From IMG/VR virus record IMGVR_UViG_2698536418_000010: DNA of 43,388 nt, one strand, 5' to 3'. The notes beneath the pieces are model-generated. The model saw nothing but the letters and a program-made list of their open reading frames with translations. It had not been told where the DNA came from and did no database searches. The translations under genes were made by a program, and so were the position numbers. The DNA comes from a virus (lineage: Duplodnaviria; Heunggongvirae; Uroviricota; Caudoviricetes). Positions 5,572 to 20,476 of the stretch are shown here, in pieces (the first letter of the stretch is position 1; each line of letters starts with the position of its first letter).

Positions 5572-5641
5572 TGCTTTTTAACCTCAACTCAGATTAAAAT
5601 TAATGCGAGTGATGAATAAATGTCCCAGGTTCTTCACTCAG

Positions 5642-5670
5642 GCCTGCACAGTGTGCAGGCTTTCTTTTTT
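5642..5670 (+). terminator. Hairpin + T-run (gcctgcaca/tgtgcaggc, tttcttttttt); intrinsic terminator on plus strand only
   Basis: Inverted repeat followed by T-rich run on plus strand; on the minus strand no U-run follows. Confidence 0.4.
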
Positions 5671-5946
5671 TCAGATTTCACCTTTTAATTTCATTGCAAT
5701 CAGAGTTGCCAGAAATTCGGCTTTTTTTTCTGCGGGCAGATTCTTTCCTATGTGCACCAGACACATTTTTTTAACACCATCGTTAAGTGTTTTAACGTTG
5801 CCTGATGGACCGTCGATATCAACCACAGTGAATGGGGTTTCTTTATTTTCTGTCTTAATCACGTAGCCAATACGCTTTCCTTCCAGGGTAACTTCGTGAA
5901 CAATGTCATCAGTAGTAACAACAGTGGCTTCATAACTGGTAATCAT
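5671..5946 (-). CDS. racC: RacC
   Basis: MITSYEATVVTTDDIVHEVTLEGKRIGYVIK… matches recalled RacC; AAGGAG RBS. Confidence 0.8.
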   Translation of the reverse strand: MITSYEATVVTTDDIVHEVTLEGKRIGYVIKTENKETPFTVVDIDGPSGNVKTLNDGVKKMCLVHIGKNLPAEKKAEFLATLIAMKLKGEI

Positions 5947-6020
5947 GTTTTTCTCCTTAATTAAGGTTGAGCGAATCCCTGCCATTGCTGGCATAAATTC
6001 AGTTTCGGATAGTCAGTTAA

Positions 6021-6191
6021 TTAAAGTTCGTGTGCCATCTGGTCTTTTTCGGCACAGATTTCACTACAATATTTTTTCATTTCCGTCGTTGGTATAACTC
6101 CACGCATGAAATGAAGTGGTCTTGTAATGATTTTGCTTTCTTCAATTTCTTTATTGCAAAGGTGATAAGCACATTTTATTTTCTTAGTCAT
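6021..6191 (-). CDS. ydaE: YdaE-like zinc-binding small protein (56 aa)
   Basis: [20 protein letters not shown]…CSEICAEKDQMAHEL; start overlaps kilR stop. Confidence 0.65.
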   Translation of the reverse strand: MTKKIKCAYHLCNKEIEESKIITRPLHFMRGVIPTTEMKKYCSEICAEKDQMAHEL

Positions 6192-6412
6192 TACCATGAC
6201 TCCGCCTTTACAGGTAAACCATCACGACCGAGGAAGACTTTAATCATGCAGTCAGAAATGCATGTTTTTGTAGTCAGGCTACGAATATAAAGTTTTCGCT
6301 TTTTAATATTGTTTGCCGAGGCGATATATGTCCGACCTTCATGAAGAACATAATCGCCAGGGGTCACACACTGACGTGGTATTTCATCAGTTCCGAAGTG
6401 ATGAGCAATCAT
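6191..6412 (-). CDS. kilR: KilR cell-division inhibitor (73 aa)
   Basis: [73 protein letters not shown]; GGAGAT RBS before ATG at 6412. Confidence 0.8.
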
Positions 6413-6820
6413 AATTATCTCCATTTTTACAAATGAATTTTGTCGATGCGGTGCCTGGTGCCTCCAGGTGACGTTAACCAGTTAACAATTAACGCCGGAT
6501 AATCCACCCATAACACTGATGCTTTTAACTGTGCCGCGTGCGCTTAGCCGCATTCACCGCATCACAAAATTCACTTTAAAAAGGGGCGGCAGGGCAGCCA
6601 CGGAGTAGAACTGATGCCGCCAAAGACTACACATAGCAATGTCGTTATTTACAACCGGAGGCGCACTCCCACCATTTAAATTTAACAGACAAGACCGACT
6701 CTTTATGGATATCGGAAATGCGCCTTCGTGTTGTGCCCGGTTTTATTTCACCACCTCCGGGCTTTGGTGGTTTCTGCTATACCCCTACAGCGAGAATATT
6801 GAATTAATCCAAATAATGGA

Positions 6821-6973
6821 TTAGCAAGTATTTCTGGCAAGCCAGCGACGTGCGCCAGCTTCGGTTTTAAACGTTTTGCTTTTGGTATACGTCATGGCGG
6901 TGAATGTGCCGTCCTGATTGGGAAACACGCCACATACCAGAGATTCGTTGTTGCCAAGATCGATAGTATCCAT
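6821..6973 (-). CDS. YdaG-like small protein (50 aa)
   Basis: MDTIDLGNNESLVCGVFPNQDGTFTAMTYTKSKTFKTEAGARRWLARNTC; GAGG RBS. Confidence 0.45.
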   Translation of the reverse strand: MDTIDLGNNESLVCGVFPNQDGTFTAMTYTKSKTFKTEAGARRWLARNTC

Positions 6974-7180
6974 GTTGACCTCATTTCCCCTTAACGCCGG
7001 GTGGCGGAACGTTTTATCTACTGCGCTTTGTATCAATCAACAACTGCCGTCATGTTCGTATGCCTCAGGCTGGCTACTTAGCCCTGTTCAGTGGCTGGAT
7101 AACTCGAGGTATTGTCCTGCCGTTCTCTGGTGGGGCGTTGTTTGGATATGCTTATTAAACACAATACGTTTTCTTGTGTC

Positions 7181-7195
7181 AACACGGAATGTGTT
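7181..7195. promoter_or_regulatory. Operator-like 15-bp palindrome AACAC-N5-GTGTT, downstream of the repressor gene
   Basis: aacacggaatgtgtt; same half-sites as operator at 7756-7770. Confidence 0.35.
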
Positions 7196-7221
7196 TTGTG
7201 GTGGGTGTCATATGATGATGG

Positions 7222-7248
7222 TACAAAAAAGCCCGCTGATAGCGGGCT
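7222..7248 (-). terminator. Rho-independent terminator of repressor gene (minus strand)
   Basis: agcccgct-gat-agcgggct hairpin with T6 on the minus strand. Confidence 0.6.
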
Positions 7249-7278
7249 GATTGGCATATTACTGTGATAGCAAGATCA

Positions 7279-7698
7279 TTACTCCGGTGGGGGATTATCT
7301 TTAAGCCTGCCTCTCAAATATTTTTCTACATACTCATCGATTTCTTTTAGCCGGACTTCAAATAGCTCAATCATTCGTTGTTGTTCTGAGCCCGGTAGCT
7401 GGTTAAACAACTCAAGAAGTTTTCGTTGGGATTCATTTAACCACAATTCAGAAGATTCCTGTTCTCCAAAGAGGAGCTCAGGAGGAGATATGCCAAGTGC
7501 CTTTCCCAATATGACAGCGTCATGCACTCCAACATTTCTGCTGCCCGCCTCATAGTTACCTATACGCGATTGCGTCCATCCGCAGATTTCAGCAAGTTTT
7601 CCTTGAGATAAACCAAGCTTCTGCCTGCGCTCTTTAAGACGCATTGCAATTTTGTCATTGAGCCTACTAGCGGCAATTTTTTCGTTTTCTTTTTCCAT
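7279..7698 (-). CDS. Prophage repressor, DicA/RacR-like HTH (XRE family, no S24 peptidase domain)
   Basis: HTH motif LSQGKLAEICGWTQSRIGNYEAG; C-terminal LLELFNQLPGSEQQ resembles DicA; divergent from cro-like gene. Confidence 0.8.
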   Translation of the reverse strand: MEKENEKIAASRLNDKIAMRLKERRQKLGLSQGKLAEICGWTQSRIGNYEAGSRNVGVHDAVILGKALGISPPELLFGEQESSELWLNESQRKLLELFNQLPGSEQQRMIELFEVRLKEIDEYVEKYLRGRLKDNPPPE

Positions 7699-7794
7699 TG
7701 CATCCTTGTATCACGAATCGTGATTTACATAAAACACAAAATAGCTTGACCATATAACACAAGGTGTGTTTAAAATTGTCATCGGAGGTTTTCA
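7699..7794. promoter_or_regulatory. Divergent promoter/operator region: palindromes atcacgaatcgtgat (7710-7724) and aacacaaggtgtgtt (7756-7770); -35 TTGACC at 7746-7751
   Basis: Two 15-bp perfect inverted repeats between divergent HTH genes; sigma70-like -35/-10 for the rightward gene. Confidence 0.6.
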
Positions 7795-8037
7795 ATGAAC
7801 AAAATTTCAACATATCGAAAACAGCTTGGGCTGTCTCAAAGACAACTTGCTGTTCAGTTAGGGTGGATACAAAGCCGACTGGCAAATTACGAAGCAAATT
7901 TTCGTACCCCTGGACTAGAGGAGTGCAGAAAAATTGTTTCTACCCTTAATCGGCTTGGCGCTCATTGTGGACTTGACGATGTATTCCCCCCAGACGGTAA
8001 GCATAGCGAAAACAGCATAGGAGCGGTTGATTCATGA
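7795..8037 (+). CDS. Cro/YdaS-like HTH regulator (80 aa)
   Basis: HTH LSQRQLAVQLGWIQSRLANYE; GGAGG RBS; divergent from repressor. Confidence 0.75.
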   Translation: MNKISTYRKQLGLSQRQLAVQLGWIQSRLANYEANFRTPGLEECRKIVSTLNRLGAHCGLDDVFPPDGKHSENSIGAVDS

Positions 8038-8459
8038 AAATCAGGCATAAGCACATCGAATCAGTGTTGTTAGCCCTGGCAGCCGAAAAAGGGCAGGCGT
8101 GGGTCGCTAACGCAATTACTGAAGAATATCTGCGCCAGGGGGGGGGCGGCGAATTGCCCCTTGTACCAGGCAAGGACTGGAACAATCAGCAGAATATCTA
8201 TCACCGTTGGTTGAAAGGTGAAACGAAAGCGCAAAGGGAAAAAATTCAGAAACTGATCCCTGCGGTTCTGGCAATTCTTCCGCGCGAGCTGCGTCACCGA
8301 CTCTGCATCTTCGATACCCTGGAACGCCGTGCATTACTGGCGGCGCAGGAAGCGTTGAGTACGGCAATTGATGCGCATGATGATGCAGTCCAGGCCGTTT
8401 ACCGGAAAGCACATTTCAGCGGTGGTGGGTCGCCCGGCGATTCTGTCGTAGTGCATTGA
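8034..8459 (+). CDS. YdaT-like protein
   Basis: Position immediately after the Cro-like gene as in Rac ydaS-ydaT; overlapping stop/start. Confidence 0.6.
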   Translation: MKIRHKHIESVLLALAAEKGQAWVANAITEEYLRQGGGGELPLVPGKDWNNQQNIYHRWLKGETKAQREKIQKLIPAVLAILPRELRHRLCIFDTLERRALLAAQEALSTAIDAHDDAVQAVYRKAHFSGGGSPGDSVVVH

Positions 8460-8536
8460 TTGAAATTAATCGTGCCGGATTGTTTTGTTCGGTATCAGTT
8501 AAATGTAACGACGCGAGCGTTACAAGGTGAAAACAA

Positions 8537-9325
8537 ATGGCTTCAAACTGGATAAAGCTCGAGGTTATTACGCCGGATAAGCCGGAAATATTCAGGCTTG
8601 CTGAGATTCTGAATATTGATCCAGATGCCGCATTAGGGAAGGTTATTCGCTTCTGGGCATGGGCGGATCAACAAATGATAGACGGTAATGCAGATTGTAA
8701 CGCTCGCGGCGTTACAAAAAGTGCAATAGATCGCATCACTTTTATGGCTGGTTTTGCTGATGCGTTAATTCAGGTTGGATGGCTGGTCGAAAATGACGTT
8801 GGGCTTTCTCTACCTAACTTTGAACGTCATAACGGAAAAAGCTCAAAAAAACGGGCGGTTACAAACGAGCGAGTTACAAAAATACGCGAACTGAAACGAA
8901 AAGGTAACGCTGCCAGCGTTACACAAACGGATCAAAAAGCGTTACCAGAGGAAGAGGAAGAGGAAGATCTAAATACTGATCTCCCCCTAAATCCCCCTCG
9001 CCAAAAACGAGCGTCTAAAAAATTCGAGCCGGAGGCTATTGAGCTGCCCGATTGGTTGCCGGAAACACTCTGGCATGAGTGGGTCCGGTTCAGACAGGCA
9101 TTGCGAAAACCGATTCGAACGGAGCAGGGCGCTAACGGGGCGATACGGGAACTGGAAAAATTCCGTCAGCAGGGTTTTACACCTGAGCAGGTGATTCGAC
9201 ACAGCATCGCCAATGAATACCAGGGCCTGTTCGCGCCGAAAGGTGTTCGGCCTGAGACGTTGCTCCGACAGGTTAACACCGTCTCGTTGCCGGACAGTGC
9301 GATCCCGCCAGGCTTCAGGGGGTAA
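8537..9325 (+). CDS. Replication initiation protein (O-like / YdaU-like, acidic linker)
   Basis: ORF with AGGTGA RBS; poly-Glu linker; immediately upstream of DnaC-like gene. Confidence 0.7.
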   Translation: MASNWIKLEVITPDKPEIFRLAEILNIDPDAALGKVIRFWAWADQQMIDGNADCNARGVTKSAIDRITFMAGFADALIQVGWLVENDVGLSLPNFERHNGKSSKKRAVTNERVTKIRELKRKGNAASVTQTDQKALPEEEEEEDLNTDLPLNPPRQKRASKKFEPEAIELPDWLPETLWHEWVRFRQALRKPIRTEQGANGAIRELEKFRQQGFTPEQVIRHSIANEYQGLFAPKGVRPETLLRQVNTVSLPDSAIPPGFRG

Positions 9326-9331
9326 CAGACC

Positions 9332-10078
9332 ATGAAAAATATTGCGACAGGAGGCGTTCTGGAGCGTATCCGCAGACTGACCCCACCACATGTAACCGCC
9401 CCATTCAGAACGGTTGCGGAGTGGCGTGAGTGGCAACTTGCTGAAGGCCAGAAACGTTGCGAGGAGATCAACCGCCTGAATCGTCAGTTGCGGGTGGAAA
9501 AAATTCTGAATCGCTCTGGCATCCAGCCGTTGCACCGTAAATGCTCGTTTGCGAATTACCAGGTGCTGAACGACGGCCAGCGATACGCGTTAAGCCAGGC
9601 GAAATCCATCGCCGATGAACTGATGACCGGGTGTACAAATTTTGCGTTCAGCGGAAAACCTGGTACCGGGAAGAATCACTTAGCGGCAGCTATAGGGAAT
9701 CGCCTGCTGAAAGACGGTCAGACAGTGATTGTGGTTACCGTGGCTGATGTTATGAGCGCCCTGCACGCCAGCTATGACGACGGGCAGTCAGGCGAAAAAT
9801 TTTTGCGGGAGCTGTGCGAAGTGGATCTGCTGGTTCTTGATGAAATTGGCATTCAGCGCGAGACGAAAAACGAGCAGGTGGTGCTGCACCAGATTGTTGA
9901 TCGCCGGACAGCGTCGATGCGCAGCGTGGGGATGCTGACAAACCTGAACTATGAGGCCATGAAAACATTGCTCGGCGAGCGGATTATGGATCGCATGACC
10001 ATGAACGGAGGGCGATGGGTGAATTTTAACTGGGAGAGCTGGCGTCCGAATGTTGGTCAGCCAGGAATTGAGAAGTAA
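9332..10078 (+). CDS. ydaV: DnaC-like helicase loader (YdaV)
   Basis: Walker [16 protein letters not shown], Walker B LLVLDEIG; near-identical to recalled Rac YdaV. Confidence 0.9.
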
Positions 10079-10100
10079 TTTTTACCGGGAGGAAGTTTTA

Positions 10101-10862
10101 ATGGAGACTGTTTTTGACGCACTGAAAGCAATGGGAAAAGCCACATCCATAGAACTTGCTGCGCGACTTGATATCAGTCGTGAAGAAGTGCTGAACGAAC
10201 TATGGGAACTGAAAAAGGCTGGTTTTGTTGATAAAAGCGCGTACACCTGGCGTGTGGCTGATAACAACGTTCAGCAGGAACAGCCAGCGCAGGCAGAACT
10301 GCCGGAAGAAACCACCACAGCAACAGTAGCGAAAATCTCAGAGTGCGATTTAACCGCAACGATTGAACAACGCGGACCACAAACGGCTGATGAGCTGGCT
10401 ACATTGTTTGGTACCACATCACGCCAAGTGGCTTCAACGCTGGCAATGGCAATCAGCAAAGGTCGTCTGATTCGCGTAAATCAGGGCGGTAAATTTCGTT
10501 ACTGCATACCGGGCGATAATTTACCAGCAGAGCCGAAAGCAGCATCGGTAGCGGAAACTGATGGTAAACCCCTTCCTCAGCCAGCAGGTGTTGCGTTACC
10601 AGTACAGGAAGCTGCTACACAGGAAGATATTAAAACAGAAACTGTAGCGGACATTGTGAAGTCGTTGCCATCGTTCACTGAAACGCAAGCGGATAATCTG
10701 TTTTTACCATCGCTGCATATGGCAAATCGCGAACTGCGTCGGGCGAAAAATCATGTCCAGAAGTGGGAGCGTGTCTGCGCCGCGCTGCGGGAGCTGAACA
10801 AACACCGGGATATTGTCCGACAGATTGTCGATTCATCCGGTCGTATTGTGTCGGAAAAGTGA
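10101..10862 (+). CDS. Hypothetical prophage protein (YdaW/DUF1627-like)
   Basis: ATG at 10101 preceded by GGGAGGAAG; 253 aa. Confidence 0.65.
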
Positions 10863-10877
10863 TTGTCGGAGGCGCTT

Positions 10878-11300
10878 ATGGCAAAAGTATTTACACAAGA
10901 AGAGCGGGAAAAAATTAAGGGGCAGGTTGTTGAACTCGTGCGCCAGAGCGGACGCGAGACGTTACGGCAACTGGAAGCCAAGACAGGTGCGACAAGATAT
11001 CTGATGAGTGCTCTTGCCAGAGAGCTGGTTGCCAGTGGCGATGTATACAACTCTGGTTACGGGTTATTCCCGTCTGAACAGGCGCGTAAGGACTGGCAAA
11101 ACGCCCGCAAAAAACTCTCAAGGGCAAATCTGAAGAAACCATCTGTGGTTGATCCTGACCTTATCTGGCCATTACCAGACGGAGAAATACGCCGCTACGA
11201 CAGGCGTCAAAACATAATCTGTAGCGAGTGCCGGAAGAGCGAAGCTATGCAGCGTGTACTGGCTTTCTATCAGGGTAATTTTCAGAAGGTGCTGTTGTGA
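10878..11300 (+). CDS. Hypothetical protein with C-terminal Cys pair
   Basis: ATG at 10878 with GGAGG RBS; track ORF uses an upstream TTG. Confidence 0.65.
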   Translation: MAKVFTQEEREKIKGQVVELVRQSGRETLRQLEAKTGATRYLMSALARELVASGDVYNSGYGLFPSEQARKDWQNARKKLSRANLKKPSVVDPDLIWPLPDGEIRRYDRRQNIICSECRKSEAMQRVLAFYQGNFQKVLL

Positions 11301-11347
11301 GCCAAATTAACAATCGGAACTTCGTGAAGAGAAAGCATAATCCAAAT

Positions 11348-11398
11348 CTGAATAATTAAGTTCAGCACTGTAAATAAAATTTAATCCTTAACTGGAGG
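11348..11398 (+). repeat. Module-boundary repeat copy 1 (ctgaataattaa…tttaatccttaacNggagg)
   Basis: About 50-bp near-identical direct repeat of 12615-12663. Confidence 0.6.
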
Positions 11399-11405
11399 TA
11401 TATCT

Positions 11406-11618
11406 ATGTCAAATACACAGAAAATTATTAACACTGAAAAATATAACGAGTGGGTGAAAAAATTCTCTGAGCAGATTTTTAAAATTACTGGCGACGAGAA
11501 TGTGGCAAAAAATGAATTGGAACCGTGGACACCTGAAGGAAACGCACCAAATTATTGCTGGTGGGAGGTTGATCCGGTTGATGCTGCAAATGAAGCCATG
11601 AGTTACCACAACGATTAA
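11406..11618 (+). CDS. Small hypothetical protein (70 aa)
   Basis: GGAGG RBS inside the repeat, ATG at 11406. Confidence 0.55.
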   Translation: MSNTQKIINTEKYNEWVKKFSEQIFKITGDENVAKNELEPWTPEGNAPNYCWWEVDPVDAANEAMSYHND

Positions 11619-11628
11619 TGTCGGGAGG

Positions 11629-11644
11629 CCGCCCGAAAGGGCGG
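11629..11644. repeat. GC hairpin ccgccc-gaaa-gggcgg (copy 1)
   Basis: Perfect stem-loop, repeated at 12692-12709; no U-run. Confidence 0.6.
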
Positions 11645-11650
11645 TAAGAA

Positions 11651-11869
11651 ATGACTACATTATTCAGAAAAGAATATCCGCAAAAAAGTAGGGCGACAGA
11701 ATTTTTGTTTCTCATTCTGTTTATCGTATTGATGATACCGATATCCCCTCTAATTTTTGTCTGGGCAATCGGGAAAATAATTGAGCCAGTTACTGAATTG
11801 TATAACGACGTGGTATGGGCGTCATTCAACACACTGCACAATAAAATTAATCCGTATAAGGAAAACTGA
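11651..11869 (+). CDS. Small membrane protein (72 aa)
   Basis: Hydrophobic core FLFLILFIVLMIPISPLIFVWAIG. Confidence 0.5.
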   Translation: MTTLFRKEYPQKSRATEFLFLILFIVLMIPISPLIFVWAIGKIIEPVTELYNDVVWASFNTLHNKINPYKEN

Positions 11870-11870
11870 T

Positions 11871-12134
11871 ATGGCAACTTTGACAAAAAAAGAACGGGCA
11901 TGGTTGAACGAATTACAGGAAGTTCTTGATCGCTGTCCATCACCGAAAAAAATTGGCTTTTACACCATTGGCGATAAAAGCATTTACCTGTATGACCTAC
12001 GCCGCATGGATGAAATCATGGAGGCTCTTGATAATCGTTCGTCGATGGATTGGTGTGTTGCTGTTCATGATATGAATGCAGGGTTTGATGAAAAGATTTT
12101 GTTCCCCTCATCAGTTGAAAGCACTGCGGGTTAA
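11871..12134 (+). CDS. Hypothetical protein (87 aa)
   Basis: AAGGA RBS, ATG at 11871 right after previous stop. Confidence 0.6.
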   Translation: MATLTKKERAWLNELQEVLDRCPSPKKIGFYTIGDKSIYLYDLRRMDEIMEALDNRSSMDWCVAVHDMNAGFDEKILFPSSVESTAG

Positions 12135-12144
12135 GGAGTAACAC

Positions 12145-12288
12145 ATGACCACTATTACCAAAGAACGTATTGAATTGTTCATTAAATTTTCAGGAGGCGG
12201 TACTGTGAGTGAAATTAGCTATCAGGCTTCAATTACCGCTGGCATTCGCATCAAAGGAGAGGAGCATGGAAATAAAACCAGAGGATGA
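12145..12288 (+). CDS. Possible small protein (47 aa)
   Basis: Strong AAGGAG RBS 7 nt upstream of ATG 12145; overlaps next gene; hand-translated. Confidence 0.35.
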   Translation: MTTITKERIELFIKFSGGGTVSEISYQASITAGIRIKGEEHGNKTRG

Positions 12289-12622
12289 GTTAAGCAATAT
12301 CGTTTTATTTCCGGTAAAAGAGGATGACCCTCGTAATCAGGTTAATTTTCTTTATGAGCCATCGGAAAGACCATATTGTCATCACGCCTCTGTCCGGGTT
12401 GACGAAAAAGAGCGTCAGGTCCGCTGTAAAATCTGCGGTGCAGTTGTGGAACCATTTGACTGGATGCTCTCTGTGGCGAAAAGAGAAACCAGACTGGCAG
12501 ATGATGTAAGGCTCTTGCGTCAGGAGGAGCGGGAAAGGCGAAAAAATATAGAAAAGCTAATTCAGATTGAGCGTAACGCGAAAGCGCGGATACGCAGGGC
12601 GACAAAATCCAGAACTGAATAA
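12266..12622 (+). CDS. Hypothetical zinc-ribbon-like protein (118 aa)
   Basis: AAGGAGAG RBS; CHH…CKIC motif. Confidence 0.6.
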   Translation: MEIKPEDELSNIVLFPVKEDDPRNQVNFLYEPSERPYCHHASVRVDEKERQVRCKICGAVVEPFDWMLSVAKRETRLADDVRLLRQEERERRKNIEKLIQIERNAKARIRRATKSRTE

Positions 12623-12663
12623 TTAAATTTAGCTCTGTTAAAAATTTAATCCTTAACCGGAGG
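12615..12663 (+). repeat. Module-boundary repeat copy 2
   Basis: Near-identical to 11348-11398; here followed by no ORF. Confidence 0.6.
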
Positions 12664-12691
12664 GATTTCTGCACCCTTAGAACATCAGGAA

Positions 12692-12709
12692 GCCGCCCGA
12701 AAGGGCGGC
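12692..12709. repeat. GC hairpin gccgccc-gaaa-gggcggc (copy 2)
   Basis: Identical core to 11629-11644. Confidence 0.6.
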
Positions 12710-12720
12710 GGTTCCATTGT

Positions 12721-13018
12721 TTAACTATCTAATATTGTGCTAAATCTTTTTATAACCATCAAGAATGTTACTACGGTAAAAAAGAAGGATGAGTATGCTA
12801 AATAACTGATTATGTAAGCAGGGGTTGCGAAATACCATTTTTTTAATTCACTTGGGGGTTCTGGGAGAAAATATATTGCAACCGAAAAAATAACTAACGC
12901 TACAGATGTTAATATGGCATAAGAAACATTGTGACATAATTGCTCATATACGGTTTTATTATTATTTAAAATTATTAGATTTGAACGTGGTTTGTTGTTT
13001 TCCTCAATGTCTGAAATT
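12721..13018 (-). CDS. Open +1-frame continuation of the membrane protein gene (adds 2 predicted TM helices); reachable by a 1-nt change in the A7 tract
   Basis: No stop in the +1 frame from 13017 to 12724; encodes …YAILTSVALVIFSVAIYFL… and …YIISYLAYSSFFFTVVTFLMVI…; no in-frame ATG/GTG/TTG start. Confidence 0.4.
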
Positions 13019-13276
13019 TTAAATACAGTTTTTTTGTTTTTGATCGTAGATCATAATAACCGCGCTCATTAATAGTGCGGTAGTAATTGCTCCAAAGTTA
13101 ACAAAAACAGATGCGATAGAGGTTTTCATTATCCCATAGGTAAAACATATGATTAATGATAATGTAAGAGGAATGATGAAGTGTATTGCGATGTCTTCGA
13201 GTAAAATATTTCCGCGTTGATCCGACATTGTTGTGTAATGTTTTTTTATTACACTCATTACGTTAATCTTGTTCAT
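13019..13276 (-). CDS. Small 2-TM membrane protein (85 aa), translationally coupled to upstream gene; candidate effector
   Basis: ATGA overlap with 310-aa ORF; two hydrophobic helices; AT-rich. Confidence 0.7.
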   Translation of the reverse strand: MNKINVMSVIKKHYTTMSDQRGNILLEDIAIHFIIPLTLSLIICFTYGIMKTSIASVFVNFGAITTALLMSAVIMIYDQKQKNCI

Positions 13277-14205
13277 ATTTTTACTCCCCCATTACCACTA
13301 TGTAACTCACTTAGTATATCATTCGCAATGATTTTAACAGTGTCATGAAGTGCTTTAAGATCGGGGATTCCTGTAGATGCGTTTATGTTTAAGTCGTTAT
13401 CATCTAATTCGGCAGAAATTCCTTTTCTTAAGATGGTGTCGTAATTAAAAATGACTGTTCTATTGCCTAATTGTAAACTAACTTTTATTGCGTCACACTT
13501 ATCTTCAATTATTTCTATTATATTTCCTAGTTTTTTGTCTTTTAAGTCTTTAAAACTACCAAATACGCCTTGATTTGCTTTTATTACCAAATCAGTTTTG
13601 ATGTTTGTTTTGTTATTTCCGAATGAATCCGTGATGTCCTTTGGTGCTTTGTAACCTTGGGCTTTTATTTGTTTTAATTCTGAATCAAGGATGTGTTGGG
13701 GAATTTTTTTGTGGCAAAGGGGATTGATTCTCGCTTCAAGTTTATATTTTGTTTTCAAGTGGTCTAGTAATGCATCAGAGAGTGTGCTGCGAGCAGAAAT
13801 ATTGTCATTAGCGTGAAATGCTATAATCCCTTCTTCTAAATTGTCTGGCAAAAATATTAAAATGTAACGCTGTTTGAGAGTTACATCGTTGATAGTTGTT
13901 GTATAACGTATTTTAGTAAGTTTATCGTCTTTTATTTCACTGCTCTCACCATATTTCCCAACCTTTACATATCCATATATTACTTGGTTTTGAGCATCAA
14001 AGGTGAGTGATGTGTGTTGTTCAAGAGAAACCTTTGTTTTCGAGAGACCAAATTCAATAGGTGTGTTTTTATAGCTATTAAAATACTCAACAAATAATTC
14101 ATATGCTGTTTTTTTATCGCTTAAACCTAGGTTGTTTAGTCTTTTGCTGGTTCGGCTGCCCTTGTGGGTTAACACACGGAATGAATAGAAGTTAACGCTG
14201 TGCAT
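13273..14205 (-). CDS. Hypothetical 310-aa soluble protein, first gene of AT-rich accessory cassette (candidate Abi/exclusion sensor)
   Basis: AAAGGA RBS before ATG at 14205; low GC relative to flanks; no nucleotide-binding motif seen. Confidence 0.8.
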   Translation of the reverse strand: MHSVNFYSFRVLTHKGSRTSKRLNNLGLSDKKTAYELFVEYFNSYKNTPIEFGLSKTKVSLEQHTSLTFDAQNQVIYGYVKVGKYGESSEIKDDKLTKIRYTTTINDVTLKQRYILIFLPDNLEEGIIAFHANDNISARSTLSDALLDHLKTKYKLEARINPLCHKKIPQHILDSELKQIKAQGYKAPKDITDSFGNNKTNIKTDLVIKANQGVFGSFKDLKDKKLGNIIEIIEDKCDAIKVSLQLGNRTVIFNYDTILRKGISAELDDNDLNINASTGIPDLKALHDTVKIIANDILSELHSGNGGVKI

Positions 14206-14529
14206 GAAAAGTCCTTTTGAACATATAGGAATATATTAGAGCATGTATGTGTGCAATGCATAAAAGGAAAAGCTACCGCAAGGCGACTCCACCCACAGAT
14301 AGCTCTTAACTGATTGTTTGTAAAAAATAATACATTAATTATCTTCTGTGTAAAGAGGGAAACAGCCTTAGGGTAAGGGACACGAGTTGGAGGAGGATTG
14401 GTGAAATTTGCGTTGAGGATAAAACGATTTGCGGGAAAAGGATAGTTAAGTAGAATAGCTGCGGGTGCTTGAGGCTGTCTGCCTCGGGCATGAACACCAA
14501 CGGCAGATAGATAAAAGCCCCACCCGACT

Positions 14530-14600
14530 ATAAATCGAAGTGAGGCCCCTATATGCTCGTCACATATAGATTGCCTCTTACGGACCGAAAGGTCAAGGAG
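14530..14600 (-). ncRNA. Expected position of Sok-like antisense RNA (approximate)
   Basis: By analogy with hok/sok loci where antisense RNA overlaps the mok/hok leader; boundaries not defined. Confidence 0.25.
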
Positions 14601-14609
14601 AAGCAGGCT

Positions 14610-14765
14610 ATGAAGCAGCAAAAGGCGATGTTAGTCGCCCTGATCGTCATCTGTTTAACCGTCATAGTGACGGCACTGGTAACGAGGAAAGACCTCTGCG
14701 AGGTACGAATCCGAACCGGCCAGACGGAGGTCGCTGTCTTCACAGCTTACGAACCTGAGGAGTAA
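14610..14765 (+). CDS. hok: Hok/Gef-family type I toxin (51 aa)
   Basis: MKQQKAMLVALIVICLTVIVTALVTRKDLCEVRIRTGQTEVAVFTAYEPEE; in-frame upstream extension from 14553 (mok-like). Confidence 0.9.
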   Translation: MKQQKAMLVALIVICLTVIVTALVTRKDLCEVRIRTGQTEVAVFTAYEPEE

Positions 14766-14772
14766 GAGACCT

Positions 14773-14794
14773 GGCGGGGGAGAAATCTCCCGCC
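14773..14794 (+). other. 3' stem-loop of hok mRNA (ggcggg…cccgcc)
   Basis: 6-bp GC stem directly after hok stop, no U-run. Confidence 0.4.
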
Positions 14795-15072
14795 ACCTCT
14801 GATGTGTCAGGCATCCTCAACGCACCCGCACTTAACCCGCTTCAGCGCTGATTTATGGGGATCCCTCAGCGTTTCGGCGGGTTTTTTGTTGCGCGCTGAA
14901 TGCGCAGGGTGAAAAATAACCATATATTTGATTATATACACAACATAAAATAAAAGTCATTGCACCTGCACATTAAATAATCAAATATACGGCGTGAAAT
15001 AAATATTTTTCAGATTAATATTTTTGTCTCTATGTAGATATAACCGTTTGTACTTATAAACCTGGAGGCATC

Positions 15073-15285
15073 GTGGAAAAAATAAAGAAACTATTTAGTA
15101 GCAAATACGCAGTCATACGTCGTGATGACCTGTCAGTTATAGTCGAAATGGATTACTTCCCTGAAACCCCAAAATCAATGATGTATCGTAATGGTCGAAA
15201 GGCAATTTTTTTACCGATGAGGGTAAGTGACATTATGGGAAATGATAAACTGCTGGATGAATTGCGAGTCAGAGCATCCTGTTAG
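15073..15285 (+). CDS. Hypothetical small protein (GTG start)
   Basis: GGAGG RBS then GTG at 15073; weak. Confidence 0.35.
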   Translation: MEKIKKLFSSKYAVIRRDDLSVIVEMDYFPETPKSMMYRNGRKAIFLPMRVSDIMGNDKLLDELRVRASC

Positions 15286-15356
15286 TATTGGCATTAATTC
15301 TGGTATACTACATAACGGGCTGAACACCCATTCTACTGCGCCAGCGGAGAACTACG

Positions 15357-15956
15357 ATGGCGCATATACAACTGGTCAAACAAACCTCTTCTGGATTACT
15401 TCTCCCGGCGACGCCGGAGAGTTGCGATTTTTTGCATCAAATCAAAATAGGTGAGTGGATACACGCGGACTTTAAGCGAGTGCGTAACTACGCGTTCCAC
15501 AAGCGTTTTTTCAAACTCCTGCAACTGGGATTCGATTACTGGACTCCGAACGGTGGGGCGATCACGCCTCGCGAACGAGAACTGGTGTCCGGTTTCGTTG
15601 ATTTCCTGTGCGAATCAGTAGGTCGGGAACATACGCCAGCCCTGAGTGATGCCGCAGAGCAATACCTTAACACCGTTGCGACTTGCAGAACCCGGGATAC
15701 GGCCTTACTCAAGTCATTTGACGCTTTTCGCGAATGGGTAACCATTCAGGCCGGATTTTACACCGAGCATATTTATCCTGATGGTAGTCGTGGGCGCAGG
15801 GCAAAATCTATCGCATTTGCGAACATGGACGAAACCGAGTTTCAGCAGGTTTATAAATCTGTACTGAATGTGCTGTGGAACTGGATCCTGTTCCGTAAAT
15901 TTTCCTCTCCGGAGGAAGTCGAAAATGTGGCCGCGCAGTTACTGGAGTTTGCGTAA
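15357..15956 (+). CDS. DUF1367-like prophage protein
   Basis: GGAGAA RBS; conserved position upstream of YbcO-like/Q. Confidence 0.75.
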   Translation: MAHIQLVKQTSSGLLLPATPESCDFLHQIKIGEWIHADFKRVRNYAFHKRFFKLLQLGFDYWTPNGGAITPRERELVSGFVDFLCESVGREHTPALSDAAEQYLNTVATCRTRDTALLKSFDAFREWVTIQAGFYTEHIYPDGSRGRRAKSIAFANMDETEFQQVYKSVLNVLWNWILFRKFSSPEEVENVAAQLLEFA

Positions 15957-16246
15957 TGGTGGATTTACGTAAAGCGGCGCGGGGGCAGATGTGCACCGTC
16001 AGAATTCCTGGCTACTGCAATCACAATCCCGAAACTTCTGTGCTGGCGCATTACAGGCTGGCGGGGACGTGCGGAACAGCGACAAAACCACACGATATGC
16101 AGGCAGCGATTGCCTGTAGCTCATGCCACGATTTAATCGACGGGCGGGTAAAAAACAGCGATTACACCAAAGAAGAATTACGCCTGATGCATGCAGAAGG
16201 TGTTTTTCGCACACAAGAAATCTGGAGAAAGGAAGGTTATTTATGA
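15956..16246 (+). CDS. YbcO-like (DUF1364) putative nuclease, Cys-rich
   Basis: CTVRIPGYCNH…CSSCHDLIDG; overlapping stop/start with neighbours. Confidence 0.8.
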   Translation: MVDLRKAARGQMCTVRIPGYCNHNPETSVLAHYRLAGTCGTATKPHDMQAAIACSSCHDLIDGRVKNSDYTKEELRLMHAEGVFRTQEIWRKEGYL

Positions 16247-16797
16247 TTTACCCAACAAATACAGGCAAAAGCGGGGAACACCTTCGTCTCACCACGCTGG
16301 AAAGTGTCTGGATTCAGGGAAAACTGCGCATGTGGGGGCGCTGGTCGTATATTGGCGGCGGTAAGACGGGAAATATGTTTAACCAGTTGCTGGCATCCAA
16401 AAAATTGACGAAAACAGCCGTCAATGAAGCCCTGCGCAGGATGAAAAAAGCGGGAATAGAGAAACCTGAGCTGGAAGCGTTTTTGCGAGAGATGATCAAT
16501 GGCAAGCAAAAGACCTGGCTGGCGCATTGTACTGATGCAGAGGCGTTATGTATTGATAGAGTCATAAGTGAGGTGCTAGCAGAGCATCCTGGATTGATTA
16601 GTGTCCTCCGGCAACGGTATGAAGGACGGGGGATGACTAAGCGCAAAATGGCTGAATTGCTAAATGATGCACACCCTGAGTGGTGTTTTCGGACGTGCTG
16701 CAGTCGGGTAGATGTATGGCTAAATCTTGCTGAATATATGCTCTATCTGCCGATGCGTGATGCATTCTCTTCCGGGTATTTAAAAACTGTCTGTTGA
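16243..16797 (+). CDS. Late-gene antiterminator Q-like
   Basis: Position after YbcO-like gene, ATG 16243 overlapping stop; Qin QuuQ-like sequence. Confidence 0.8.
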   Translation: MIYPTNTGKSGEHLRLTTLESVWIQGKLRMWGRWSYIGGGKTGNMFNQLLASKKLTKTAVNEALRRMKKAGIEKPELEAFLREMINGKQKTWLAHCTDAEALCIDRVISEVLAEHPGLISVLRQRYEGRGMTKRKMAELLNDAHPEWCFRTCCSRVDVWLNLAEYMLYLPMRDAFSSGYLKTVC

Positions 16798-16885
16798 CTC
16801 AATCTGTTATCCGGGGCTATATTCCTCACGCGCCAGCAAAATCTGGCGTCGGGATTAGGAACCCCGGATAGAGACCGCGACAGAC

Positions 16886-16908
16886 ACACGCCGCGAGCGT
16901 GTTTTTTA
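16886..16908 (+). terminator. Rho-independent terminator (acacgc-cgcga-gcgtgt + T6), candidate tR'
   Basis: Stem-loop followed by tttttt, about 90 bp after Q. Confidence 0.65.
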
Positions 16909-17070
16909 TTGTCGTATGCACGCGCACATCTGAATTATGGTGGGGCGTATGGGGGAGCTGAAAAGCTCGCCGGTTGGTTTCCCGGTAGTTCCTAACCCTG
17001 TACGTCTCACCACCCGATGATTAGGAACCTGACGGTGGTGATGGTTTAGAAACCACCAGAGGGCGTCATT

Positions 17071-17652
17071 ATGACAACTCAAATTTCTGTTGAAACTCTC
17101 TCCCCGATCACCCATAACCAGATTCCTGTTATTACCACCGAACTTTTGGCGCAGTTGTACGGTGCTGAAGTTAAGAACATTCAAAATAACTACGCCAGAA
17201 ATGCTGAGCGCTTTATTGAAGGAAAGCATTTTTTCAAAGTGGCTGGTGATGCCCTGAAAAATTTGCGGGTAGCTTTAAACTACTCACAAAATTTGCAACC
17301 ATCTTTAAGAGGGTTACAAATTTCCCCGAAAGCCCGCTCCCTCATCCTCTGGACAGAACGCGGAGCAGCCCGTCATGCCAAAATGCTCGAAACCGATCAG
17401 GCGTGGGATGTGTTCGAAAAGCTGGAAGACTGCTATTTCAGACAAAAGGATCCGTCAGCGCCAGTTTCATGCCAGAAAAGTTACGACACGCGAGTTCTCT
17501 GTTATCAGCGAGGCGGTGTCACTGTTTCCACAATTCAGTTGCGGGATGATGATATTGTTATTTCCCTTGAGTCATGGCTGGAACTGGCGAGAGCCAATGG
17601 TTGGTTTGTTGTTCGCAGAGATAAACTGGTGGAAAGGTTGATGCAGCTTTAA
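17071..17652 (+). CDS. ORF6N-domain protein (antirepressor-like)
   Basis: N-terminal ORF6N-like motif …NQIPVITTELLAQLYGAEVKNIQNNYARNAERFIEGKHFF…. Confidence 0.75.
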   Translation: MTTQISVETLSPITHNQIPVITTELLAQLYGAEVKNIQNNYARNAERFIEGKHFFKVAGDALKNLRVALNYSQNLQPSLRGLQISPKARSLILWTERGAARHAKMLETDQAWDVFEKLEDCYFRQKDPSAPVSCQKSYDTRVLCYQRGGVTVSTIQLRDDDIVISLESWLELARANGWFVVRRDKLVERLMQL

Positions 17653-17747
17653 AAAAGTTCTTGCATTTTTGCACATAAACTGCTTCAATTCCGGTACGCT
17701 TCGCAAAGCTGTATCGCGAGGCGAATCAAGCGCATGAACTTTACCAG

Positions 17748-17776
17748 AACCCGCCATTGAGCGGGTTTTGTTGTTT
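17748..17776 (+). terminator. Rho-independent terminator (acccgc-cattga-gcgggt + U-rich)
   Basis: Hairpin + tttgttgttt. Confidence 0.6.
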
Positions 17777-18000
17777 CTGACGGATAGAAAAATGAAATAG
17801 CTAAATAAAAAGAATGCATTGGATGCCATATATTGGCAACGTGACGACAGCGTTAATCTGGTCGGGCTCCCATGGCGACGTAGTGAGGGAGAGGAAGCGT
17901 AAAGCATCACTGAGTTACGGTTGGCACCCGGTTTAACGCGTAAGTAGCCTGATAAAGAGATAGTGCACCGCAGCACTAACAGCGGCAACGATTAACTGAC

Positions 18001-18025
18001 CTCGGCATTTGCCGGGGTTTTTTTA
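18001..18025 (+). terminator. Hairpin + T7 (cggc-attt-gccg)
   Basis: Short stem, ttttttt at 18018-18024. Confidence 0.45.
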
Positions 18026-18148
18026 TTTAAGGCCGCAGACAGGCCCATTTAGTGCAACGCTTTTCCCCGTTTCCGCTCCTGGAATATTCGGGGATTTTTT
18101 ATTCCCTCAATTTGCACCCGCGATATGTGCGAGGTGAGAGATGATGAA

Positions 18149-18484
18149 ATGCCTCATAACCCAAATACCTGGCCGGACTGGCTGGAGTTGTTTCAGAGCT
18201 GGTGGCGTGGAGACACACCGCTGGGTGCAGTGATTATGTCGATCGTTATGGCTGGTTTGCGCATCGCCTATTTTGGCGGTGGTGGGGGCTGGAAACGAAA
18301 AACGCTTGAGATTTTGCTCTGTGGTGCCCTGACGCTGACCTTTGCATCCGCGCTTGAGTATGTCGGATGGCCTAAATCACTTTCTGTTGCCATTGGTGGT
18401 GGGGTGGGGCTGATTGGTGTCGATGCTATTCGTGGTGCGGCAATGAGGGTCATCGGTAACAAGTTCGGTGTCCATAAGGAGTAA
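18149..18484 (+). CDS. Holin, class I-like (3 TM); alternative upstream start at 18125
   Basis: GAGGTGA RBS 8 nt before ATG 18149; three hydrophobic helices, charged C-tail; directly upstream of endolysin. Confidence 0.8.
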   Translation: MPHNPNTWPDWLELFQSWWRGDTPLGAVIMSIVMAGLRIAYFGGGGGWKRKTLEILLCGALTLTFASALEYVGWPKSLSVAIGGGVGLIGVDAIRGAAMRVIGNKFGVHKE

Positions 18485-18487
18485 TTA

Positions 18488-18964
18488 ATGCAGACACTTA
18501 ATTCCCAGCGTAAAGCTTTCCTTGATATGGTGGCATGGTCAGAAGGAACAGATAACGGACGGCAGAAAACCAGAAATCACGGTTATGATGTTATTGTCGG
18601 TGGCGAACTGTTCACTGATTACTCCGATCACCCCCGCAAACTTGTCACGCTAAATCCGAAACTCAAATCAACAGCCGCCGGACGTTACCAGCTTCTTTCT
18701 CGCTGGTGGGATGCCTACCGCAAGCAACTTGGCCTGAAAGATTATTCCCCAGAAAGTCAGGATGCTGTAGCGCTGCAGCAGATTAAAGAGCGTGGCGCTT
18801 TACCGATGATTGACCGTGGCGATATTCGTCAGGCAATCGACCGTTGCAGCAATATCTGGGCGTCGTTACCTGGTGCAGGTTACGGTCAGTATGAACATAG
18901 AATCGGTGACCTGATTTCCCGATTTAAAGAAGCTGGTGGGGTGGTAAATGAAGCTGAGATATAA
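18488..18964 (+). CDS. Endolysin, lambda R-type lytic transglycosylase
   Basis: …NQRKAFLDMVAWSEGTDNGRQKTRNHGYDVIVGGELFTDYSDHPRKLV… near-identical to recalled lambda R. Confidence 0.9.
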   Translation: MQTLNSQRKAFLDMVAWSEGTDNGRQKTRNHGYDVIVGGELFTDYSDHPRKLVTLNPKLKSTAAGRYQLLSRWWDAYRKQLGLKDYSPESQDAVALQQIKERGALPMIDRGDIRQAIDRCSNIWASLPGAGYGQYEHRIGDLISRFKEAGGVVNEAEI

Positions 18965-19340
18965 GCTGGTTATTGTTGCCTTCTTTGTTACCGTCATCGG
19001 TTCTTTTATCTGGTATGCCGGGCATTACTACAGCAAATATCAGTACGAAAAGGAGCGTGCTGATGAGGCTGTACGAAATGCTGAATCTGCAACAGCCATT
19101 ACCAGTAACGTCCTGCAATCACTGCAAATCATCAATACAGTTATAGAGGCTAACCAGCATGCAAAACAGCAGATCGCACTGGAGTCACAGAGAACCCAGG
19201 AAGATATCAAAGTGGCTGTTGCGGATGATGATTGCGCTGTTCGTATCGTTCCTTCTGGCGCAGTTAAGCGGTTGCACGAATACGCGAACGGTATACGTGT
19301 CGGTGCCGGTCGTTCCGTTACCAGCCAGTCTGACGGATGA
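18948..19340 (+). CDS. i-spanin Rz-like
   Basis: N-terminal TM, coiled-coil-like region; follows endolysin. Confidence 0.7.
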   Translation: MKLRYKLVIVAFFVTVIGSFIWYAGHYYSKYQYEKERADEAVRNAESATAITSNVLQSLQIINTVIEANQHAKQQIALESQRTQEDIKVAVADDDCAVRIVPSGAVKRLHEYANGIRVGAGRSVTSQSDG

Positions 19341-19503
19341 AACACCCCAGCCAGATTTACCCGACCCGTTTACGTGGGGAGCCAGCCTTAACCTGAATGT
19401 TGCGTTGCTGTCAGCGTTAGCACAGTGCAACAGGGATAAGGCCGATATCAGGACTTTTGAGAAAAACAGGGCAGCACAAACCAATGGCACGATTAAACGT
19501 TGA
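19225..19503 (+). CDS. o-spanin Rz1-like lipoprotein, overlapped arrangement
   Basis: Starts inside Rz in the +1 frame; lipobox LSGC; proline-rich. Confidence 0.6.
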   Translation: MMIALFVSFLLAQLSGCTNTRTVYVSVPVVPLPASLTDETPQPDLPDPFTWGASLNLNVALLSALAQCNRDKADIRTFEKNRAAQTNGTIKR

Positions 19504-19669
19504 AGTTATCCCACCAGACAGCGAAACGATGAACGGAATTTTTGCAGAGATTGAACGTAAATATGCGCATCAGCCGATGACGCAAAAAGTTATCGATGAA
19601 ATGCAACGCGAAGCGGCGCGCCTTGTAAGGCGAGCGACAAACACGAAGGTTACGTTTGTTCGGGACTGA
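19484..19669 (+). CDS. Hypothetical small protein
   Basis: ATG 19484 in track ORF; weak. Confidence 0.3.
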   Translation: MARLNVEVIPPDSETMNGIFAEIERKYAHQPMTQKVIDEMQREAARLVRRATNTKVTFVRD

Positions 19670-19726
19670 CATTACAGAAGCTCCTTTGATAAGGGGCTTC
19701 GATAATGTCACTAAGAGGAAAAATTC

Positions 19727-20476
19727 ATGGCAAAACCGGACTGGGAGGCCATCGAATCGGCATACCGGGCCGGAGTCCTTAGCCTCCGTGATATAGGCGA
19801 GAAATACGGCGTTACAGAAGGGGCTATCAGGAAGAGGGCCAAAAAGCTTGGTTGGGTACGCAGTGGCGGTACGCAGGTTTGCAAAAATGGTACGCAAAAA
19901 AGAAAAGTGCGTACCAGCAGAAAGCCTGCCATTACTGGCCTTACACAAAAAGGTACGCAACTAAAAACAGAACCTACACTGGATACGAAACCGATACGCG
20001 GAATGCGTACCGATCCCCCGACTAACCCATTCCAACCCGGTAACCAGCAGGCATTAAAACACGGTGGTTATGCCCGTCGCCTTCTGCTCAAAGATGAGGT
20101 GATAGAGGACGCTAAAGCGTTGACGCTCGAGGACGAATTATTTCGCCTTCGTGCTAACAACCTTGTCGCTGCAGAGAATATTGGTCGGTGGCTGGTGTCG
20201 CTGGAAGATGCTAGTGGGGACCAGGAAAGGAAGATGCTGATGGAAAATATCAGCGCCGCCGAGAAAGCAATGATGCGCAATACAGTTCGTATTGAGTCCA
20301 TCGTTGGCACGCTTGCGACGGTAGGAAAGATATTTGCTGATACAGCCTACCGCAAGGCCGCCACTGATAAGGTGTCTCTGGAGGCTGATCGTCTTCGCCG
20401 TGATGCAGGTATTGATGATGGCAATGGAGAGCGTGACCTCAATGACTTCTACTCTGACATCCAAACCGACGCTTAA
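19727..20476 (+). CDS. Terminase small subunit (N-terminal HTH)
   Basis: AAGAGG RBS; N-terminal HTH-like region; upstream of large terminase. Confidence 0.8.
   Translation: MAKPDWEAIESAYRAGVLSLRDIGEKYGVTEGAIRKRAKKLGWVRSGGTQVCKNGTQKRKVRTSRKPAITGLTQKGTQLKTEPTLDTKPIRGMRTDPPTNPFQPGNQQALKHGGYARRLLLKDEVIEDAKALTLEDELFRLRANNLVAAENIGRWLVSLEDASGDQERKMLMENISAAEKAMMRNTVRIESIVGTLATVGKIFADTAYRKAATDKVSLEADRLRRDAGIDDGNGERDLNDFYSDIQTDA

Follow-up and report, generated by a model that had tools for sequence, protein, structure and literature searches.

A one-base insertion in a short A-tract disrupts the membrane-protein gene of a conserved two-gene prophage module

Does a run of seven A residues near the end of a small membrane-protein gene switch that gene between two products, or is the gene simply broken there? 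The question is raised by a 43,388-nt viral sequence (IMG/VR record IMGVR_UViG_2698536418_000010), the whole of which is referred to below as the window. It is a mosaic prophage that combines Rac-like lambdoid early genes (ydaT, ydaV, DUF1627, DUF977, and hok) with myovirus-type late genes. On its minus strand, an ORF running from ATG to TAA encodes 85 amino acids and has the 3' end ...GAT CAA AAA CAA AAA AAC TGT ATT TAA. A first-pass annotation, made from the letters alone, had proposed that the A7 run in this 3' end switches the product between a form with two transmembrane (TM) helices and a form with four, and had left three readings side by side: an inactivating indel of recent origin, a slipped-strand phase switch, and a sequencing error at a homopolymer. 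The ORF is here called gene B, the gene upstream of it gene A, and the two together the module; the coordinates of all features are collected in Table 1.

The description of the reading frames in the first-pass annotation is borne out in all its parts. The ORF and homopolymer coordinates place the stop of the 85-aa ORF right after the A7 run, and translation, hydropathy, and an AlphaFold model agree that the +1 frame is open for a further 99 codons, to position 12721, and encodes two more TM helices. In relatives, the tract is A6 and encodes ...Q K T... as CAA AAA ACT. When one A is removed from the window sequence, translation yields a single ORF of 184 codons whose stop ends at 12721, which corresponds to the four-helix protein of roughly 184 residues that had been anticipated for a 1-nt contraction. 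In this repaired frame, ATG, GTG, and TTG triplets are found at codons 1, 7, 17, 50, 70, 75, 172, and 173 only. Codons 76-171 are without any start codon, so the 3' part cannot be an independent gene, as had also been claimed.

With A7, the frame is lost after residue 82 and translation stops three codons later. The truncated gene encodes an N-terminal amphipathic helix, TM1, TM2, and then three out-of-frame residues (NCI), and it retains the most conserved motif of the family, VNFGAITTALLMSAV. The 3' remainder encodes a cytoplasmic helical hairpin, TM3, TM4, and a conserved C-terminal FLMxxKRFS motif. The protein thus loses the hairpin, both of the later TM helices, and the C-terminal KRFS motif.

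Runs of length 7 occur 18 times in the window, five of them within the 1.5-kb module, and the A7 run is unremarkable on its own. What goes beyond chance is the open, start-less frame of 99 codons behind the tract; from end to end, this frame is homologous to the C-terminal half of a conserved family of proteins. Elsewhere, inside a ydaT-like ORF (8034..8459; YdaT, the cII-equivalent), lies the longest homopolymer of the window, a G9 run at 8138-8146 (plus strand). Strain L73 has G6 at this site, giving three glycines compared to four in the window, which is an in-frame polymorphism.

Table 1. Positions of the module, its flanking signals, and variant alleles of gene B (window coordinates)
Feature	Position	Strand	Details and basis
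Truncated gene B	13019..13276	-	85 codons + TAA; P0045; alignment, hydropathy
A7 homopolymer (T7 on the plus strand), site of the +1 A insertion	13029..13035	-	Alignments to relatives
Out-of-frame 3' remainder of gene B	12721..13028	-	Codons 83-184 + stop of the intact gene
Gene A, intact, first gene of the operon	13273..14205	-	310-aa soluble protein; model with a possible RexA/RdgC/IML3-like fold
GC-rich hairpin, likely transcription terminator	12688..12715	-	RNA fold -20.6 kcal/mol, z = -2.1
Promoter-like site	14327..14354	-	TTTACA, 16-nt spacer, TATTAT; 10/12 consensus matches
A5 allele of the tract, P0029	13029-13035	-	Gene B; 104 aa; same 90%-identity cluster
A7 -> A6, P0048	12838-12844	-	Gene B; 154 aa; rare allele, same cluster
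C4 -> C3, P0054	near 12854-12858	-	Gene B; 143 aa; rare allele, same cluster
+C, strain 64EVA (L002)	near 12884	-	Gene B; 142 aa; rare allele, same cluster

The state of the tract in the complete genomes is uniform. Among 5426 complete E. coli genomes screened, the module was found in 36-37, with an identity of about 98.9% in 15 and about 75% in 21-22. The matched span across the tract is one base shorter than in the window in each of the 37 complete genomes that carry the gene, and explicit alignment placed A7 of the window against A6 in four genomes (L001-L004); the comparison of A6 and A7 among orthologous loci, which the first-pass annotation had put forward as a check, thus comes out in favor of A6 in the relatives. 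The annotations examined show two overlapping genes of 933 nt (310 aa) and 555 nt (184 aa), both labeled as hypothetical. Strain L73, for example, carries the operon in its intact A6 form (WP_025492045 / WP_025492044).

Beyond these genomes, at least 1000 contigs encode the intact 184-aa protein (P0001), and Salmonella, Klebsiella, Cronobacter, Pantoea, Enterobacter, Providencia, and Proteus have homologues of about 175-195 aa, with identities down to 39%. A length of about 180 aa is kept across the Enterobacterales and metagenomes. In the family alignment, the C-terminal half is conserved, with the motifs Y.QLC.N and TFLM..KRFS, and the PHROG 15250 profile, which has 184 positions, matches from end to end. 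The first-pass annotation had considered that homologues might share the premature stop; all of them read through it. These comparisons establish, as judged from the aligned sequences, that the ancestral and universally conserved state is a single 184-aa ORF.

The age of the A7 allele can be read from its closest relatives. The window's own haplotype exists in an intact form with A6 (P0132 / WP_367745928.1), on a 5.3-Mb contig. Contigs that carry the exact 310-aa protein of the window have the 184-aa gene in six distinct places and the 85-aa gene in two, and the 85-aa gene among them is restricted to the window's own lineage. In addition, a metagenome scaffold (L023) differs from the window by a single A over 1651 nt. 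The intact form of the same haplotype and this single-base difference indicate that the insertion from A6 to A7 was a single and very recent event.

The exact 85-aa product was found on 4-6 contigs and has the NCBI accessions CTV33930.1, CTV37061.1, and CTV76325.1. The contigs with A7 include NCBI GCA_001265995.1 and Logan ERR137798, the contig of the latter being common to two further samples, and they match the window at 100% identity along 6258 nt and 1884 nt. These observations establish, at the level of the assembled sequences, that a genuine and very recent insertion has become fixed in one prophage lineage.

On the whole, a 184-aa gene, of which the 85-aa ORF is the 5' part, was very probably disrupted by one extra A, which arose through ordinary replication slippage in an AT-rich gene and not through the action of a dedicated switch. 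Among the three readings of the first-pass annotation, the recent inactivating indel is favored by the A6 state of all 37 complete genomes and by the L023 scaffold, the sequencing error is disfavored by the recurrence of A7, and the phase switch is not supported either. The event resembles the homopolymer frameshift pseudogenes found in prophage moron genes: a single base is inserted into a short A run of an AT-rich acquired gene, the stop follows within three codons, and the downstream frame is still open as the event is recent; likewise, only one lineage is affected, and sibling alleles carry other small indels. Nothing essential sets the present case apart from these pseudogenes, except that the A6 tract has mutated at least twice here, to A7 and to A5.

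A first alternative is slipped-strand phase variation. The tract would then be a contingency locus that turns the four-TM protein on at A6 and off at A7 or A5, which would let lysogen populations hedge protection against the cost of a toxic membrane effector. A6 and A7 both occur on an otherwise identical haplotype of 1651 nt, independent changes have lengthened the tract (A7 in the window lineage) and shortened it (A5 in P0029), and the affected gene is a putative toxic effector; the shared haplotype and the one A5 contraction leave slow, reversible toggling a small probability. The tract length decides the product, with A6 giving 184 aa, A7 85 aa, and A5 104 aa. Known contingency loci of Haemophilus, Neisseria, Campylobacter, and Helicobacter likewise have a coding homopolymer whose length toggles the frame of a surface or membrane-associated gene.

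However, the tract here is short, is conserved only as far as the peptide requires, and is almost invariant among isolates, unlike in those loci. Homopolymers that act as switches mostly comprise 8 or more units, and the wild-type A6 is shorter than is typical of the known contingency loci; in E. coli, no precedent for phase variation with such a short A-tract is known. An off-length tract was found in none of the 37 complete genomes, and the off allele is present on 4-6 contigs compared to at least 1000 for the on allele. The tract corresponds to the peptide KQKT written in A-rich codons and is absent from Brenneria and Erwinia; Brenneria has CAGAAGAGCAAG at this site, and the more distant homologues have no run there.

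Furthermore, comparable rare frameshifts are found at other short runs of gene B (Table 1) and in gene A. The 90%-identity cluster that holds these gene B alleles also holds a 75-aa form of the product. For gene A, broken alleles are represented by 131-aa C-terminal fragments on 31 contigs (P0135 and P0137) and by a frameshift form of 173 aa on 6 contigs (P0085). The short tract, its near-invariance, its lack of conservation, and the damage elsewhere in the module therefore fit the ordinary decay of a prophage accessory gene, and the two independent changes at the tract make it a mild mutational hot spot, nothing more. Phase variation is thus quite improbable, and the first-pass claim that A7 switches between a two-TM and a four-TM product is not sustained, as the wild-type is only A6, the tract is not conserved beyond close relatives, A7 is rare, and other sites in the gene are hit by rare frameshifts as well.

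Homopolymers are classic sites of sequencing error, and an assembly that miscounted the run would hide an organism that truly has A6 and an intact 184-aa gene. The complete genome of strain 64EVA (L002) has a different single-base insertion in gene B, possibly an error of this kind. Against this reading, GCA_001265995.1 and Logan assemblies from other sequencing runs share the A7 allele, with flanks that match at 100%, and the 85-aa product stands under three separate NCBI protein records. The recurrence of A7 across assemblies of different sources makes a random error unlikely, and as an account of the window, a sequencing or assembly error is highly improbable.

Recoding, by which the A7 allele would make the 85-aa and 184-aa products together through transcriptional slippage or ribosomal frameshifting, is improbable in the extreme. 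The insertion does create a canonical -1 slippery heptamer (A_AAA_AAC) in the zero-frame register (13027-13035, minus strand), and RNA polymerase can slip on A runs. Slippage by the E. coli RNA polymerase, however, is substantial at runs of about 9 or more, and A7 falls short of this length, so that full-length protein would be made in trace amounts at most. The conserved C-terminus requires a shift of +1 or -2, and no homologue is split, all being single ORFs. Frameshifting by -1 on the heptamer is rejected, since it enters the wrong frame, in which a stop follows after 17 codons and the resulting 17-residue tail, LYLKFQTLRKTTNHVQI, is the same as that of the natural A5 allele P0029 and not the conserved C-terminus.

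The gene disrupted by the insertion belongs to a compact operon. The stop codon of gene A and the start codon of gene B share the sequence ATGA. The hairpin lies 6 nt 3' of the full-length stop and about 300 nt beyond the premature stop; it was not listed by a consensus terminator scan, because it has no clean T-run. The promoter-like site lies about 120 nt upstream of gene A, and such sites are no more frequent in the region than in shuffled sequences; as a consensus match only, it is a candidate for a promoter of the module's own. The module (12721-14205) has a GC content of 32.5% compared to 48.3% for the window, and it sits between hok and the DUF977/replication (nin-type) genes, read opposite to the flanking early-right genes. 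The low GC content and the opposite orientation are a signature of an acquired moron, as far as composition and gene order can tell.

A gene for a Hok/Gef-family toxin (14610-14765, plus strand; 51 aa, MKQQKAMLVALIVICLTVIVTALVTRKDLCEVRIRTGQTEVAVFTAYEPEE) adjoins the module, and this hok neighborhood recurs in all related prophages examined. The late region (20000-43388) shares 98% identity with Escherichia phage vB_EcoM-611R5 and about 81% with Salmonella phage SEN34. The highest coverage of positions 5000-20000 by any complete E. coli genome in the collection was 84%. The phage collection held no close copy of the module, the single match being one of 59 nt in the flank, and a search for related loci with close alignment returned three loci.

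Searches of Pfam, NCBIfam, and PADLOC gave no match for either protein of the module, and Pfam and PADLOC gave none for 52 distant relatives. Weak matches to DUF6419 and ABC2_membrane were below threshold, look like hydrophobic noise, and were rejected. In the literature, the RefSeq protein accessions led to no paper, and no paper naming the module was found. When 1.84 billion representatives were searched with a profile of the 310-aa protein, 595 clusters (50% identity) were recovered, almost all of them 300-320 aa long.

Six distant relatives of gene A, with alignment identities of about 19-25% to the window protein, were examined for their neighbors. Each of the six is followed, on its own strand, by a gene for a homologue of the 184-aa protein (178-213 aa; hmmsearch E-values of 4e-16 to 2e-39), and every one of these partners has four hydrophobic helices. 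This conserved partnership indicates that the operon is old and co-inherited. These results show, by gene order and homology, that the pair of 310 aa and about 180 aa forms a tightly coupled operon, which is conserved all the way from prophages of E. coli to distant relatives in metagenomes.

The intact product of gene B is predicted to be a four-helix inner-membrane protein. Hydropathy analysis of the 184-aa protein gave four hydrophobic helices at about residues 24-50, 54-77, 113-140, and 154-182. A confident AlphaFold model built from 27 homologues (pLDDT 88, pTM 0.82) is all-helical, with helices at residues 26-47, 52-92, 97-135, and 147-183. The frameshift falls at residue 83, within the cytoplasmic extension of the predicted helix 2. 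A Foldseek search of the PDB with the four-TM model gave no significant match, the best E-value being 0.29.

A soluble protein paired with a small membrane protein in a prophage brings to mind the RexAB exclusion system of phage lambda (PDB 8TWQ; Pfam PF15969 for RexA and PF15968 for RexB). Its family is characterized by a phenotype of exclusion or abortive infection, which requires both proteins and entails a loss of membrane potential. Systems of the RexAB type are also found in P. putida prophage P1 and in mycobacteriophages Sbash and CarolAnn. In systems with the lambda-type polarity, the membrane protein is the effector, whereas in those of the Butters type, the membrane protein restrains a toxic soluble protein. 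Like lambda rexAB, the present module is a prophage operon in which a soluble protein of about 280-310 aa is followed by a small protein with four TM helices (here predicted), and its foreign base composition is what a moron would show. For the 310-aa protein, the AlphaFold model (pLDDT 77.5) matches phage RdgC proteins in a Foldseek search of a viral structure library. RexA has RdgC, IML3, and CHL4 as relatives of its fold, and RexB is a 16-kDa protein with four TM helices (PMC11077077).

Conversely, the module differs from lambda rexAB in several respects. There is no detectable sequence similarity to RexA or RexB. Alignment of the 310-aa protein to RexA by hhalign gave a probability of 0.3-0.5% with shallow profiles and of 15.6% (E 0.0017, 77 columns) with a deeper profile, which is still sub-threshold; PDB sequence-profile searches with this protein did not find RexA (8TWQ), and it had no match to Pfam PF15969. 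For the 184-aa protein, the hhalign probability against RexB was 0.6%, and there was no match to Pfam PF15968. The membrane protein is 184 aa long compared to 144 aa, and its TM2 and TM3 are separated by a long helical hairpin in the cytoplasm. In addition, rexAB adjoins the repressor gene on its downstream side and is co-transcribed with it in the lysogen, whereas the module is located between hok and replication/nin-type genes on the opposite strand.

Kiwa (KwaA/KwaB) was considered as a second candidate, as it likewise couples a four-TM protein (about 190 aa) to one that binds DNA (about 315 aa), sizes almost equal to those of the module. KwaA, however, has an intracellular beta-barrel (bioRxiv 10.1101/2023.02.26.530102), unlike the all-helical membrane model of the module, and the gene order is reversed relative to kwaA-kwaB. 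Kiwa was rejected on the reversed order, the different architecture of KwaA, and the lack of any DUF4868 or PADLOC Kiwa match.

Fold, architecture, and context thus suggest that the operon may work in the manner of lambda RexAB, by an analogy that we regard with somewhat less than even confidence; that the intact pair is a real Rex-like defense system is held a little more tentatively again. In such a mechanism, the 310-aa protein would be a soluble and probably DNA-binding sensor, detecting infection via DNA or a DNA-protein complex, and the activated four-TM protein would compromise the membrane, arresting the infected cell. The window prophage would then carry a natural knock-out of the effector with the sensor gene intact. 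As gene A is intact next to a gene B cut to two helices, gene A is evidently tolerated without full-length gene B, a tolerance that fits the lambda-type polarity, with a membrane effector, better than the Butters type.

The two lines of argument could be joined, with the 310-aa/184-aa pair representing an undescribed and widespread abortive-infection family of the RexAB type whose effector is toggled at low frequency by short A-tracts. This joint reading is very improbable, and most of the doubt comes from its reversible-toggle part. If the toggle did exist, A7 would be a reversible off state by which lysogens escape the cost of the system. The frameshift itself is of minor importance: it is a routine pseudogenizing mutation, and the locus should be annotated as a disrupted gene, not as a gene for an 85-aa protein.

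The broken gene nevertheless belongs to an unnamed operon family whose members are carried by prophages of E. coli, Salmonella, Klebsiella, and other Enterobacterales and by distant relatives in metagenomes. The predicted fold and the architecture of this family point to a Rex-type sensor with a membrane effector, which would make it a candidate phage-defense system. The modest interest of the locus therefore resides in an unnamed, widespread, and possibly Rex-like two-gene family rather than in the frameshift.
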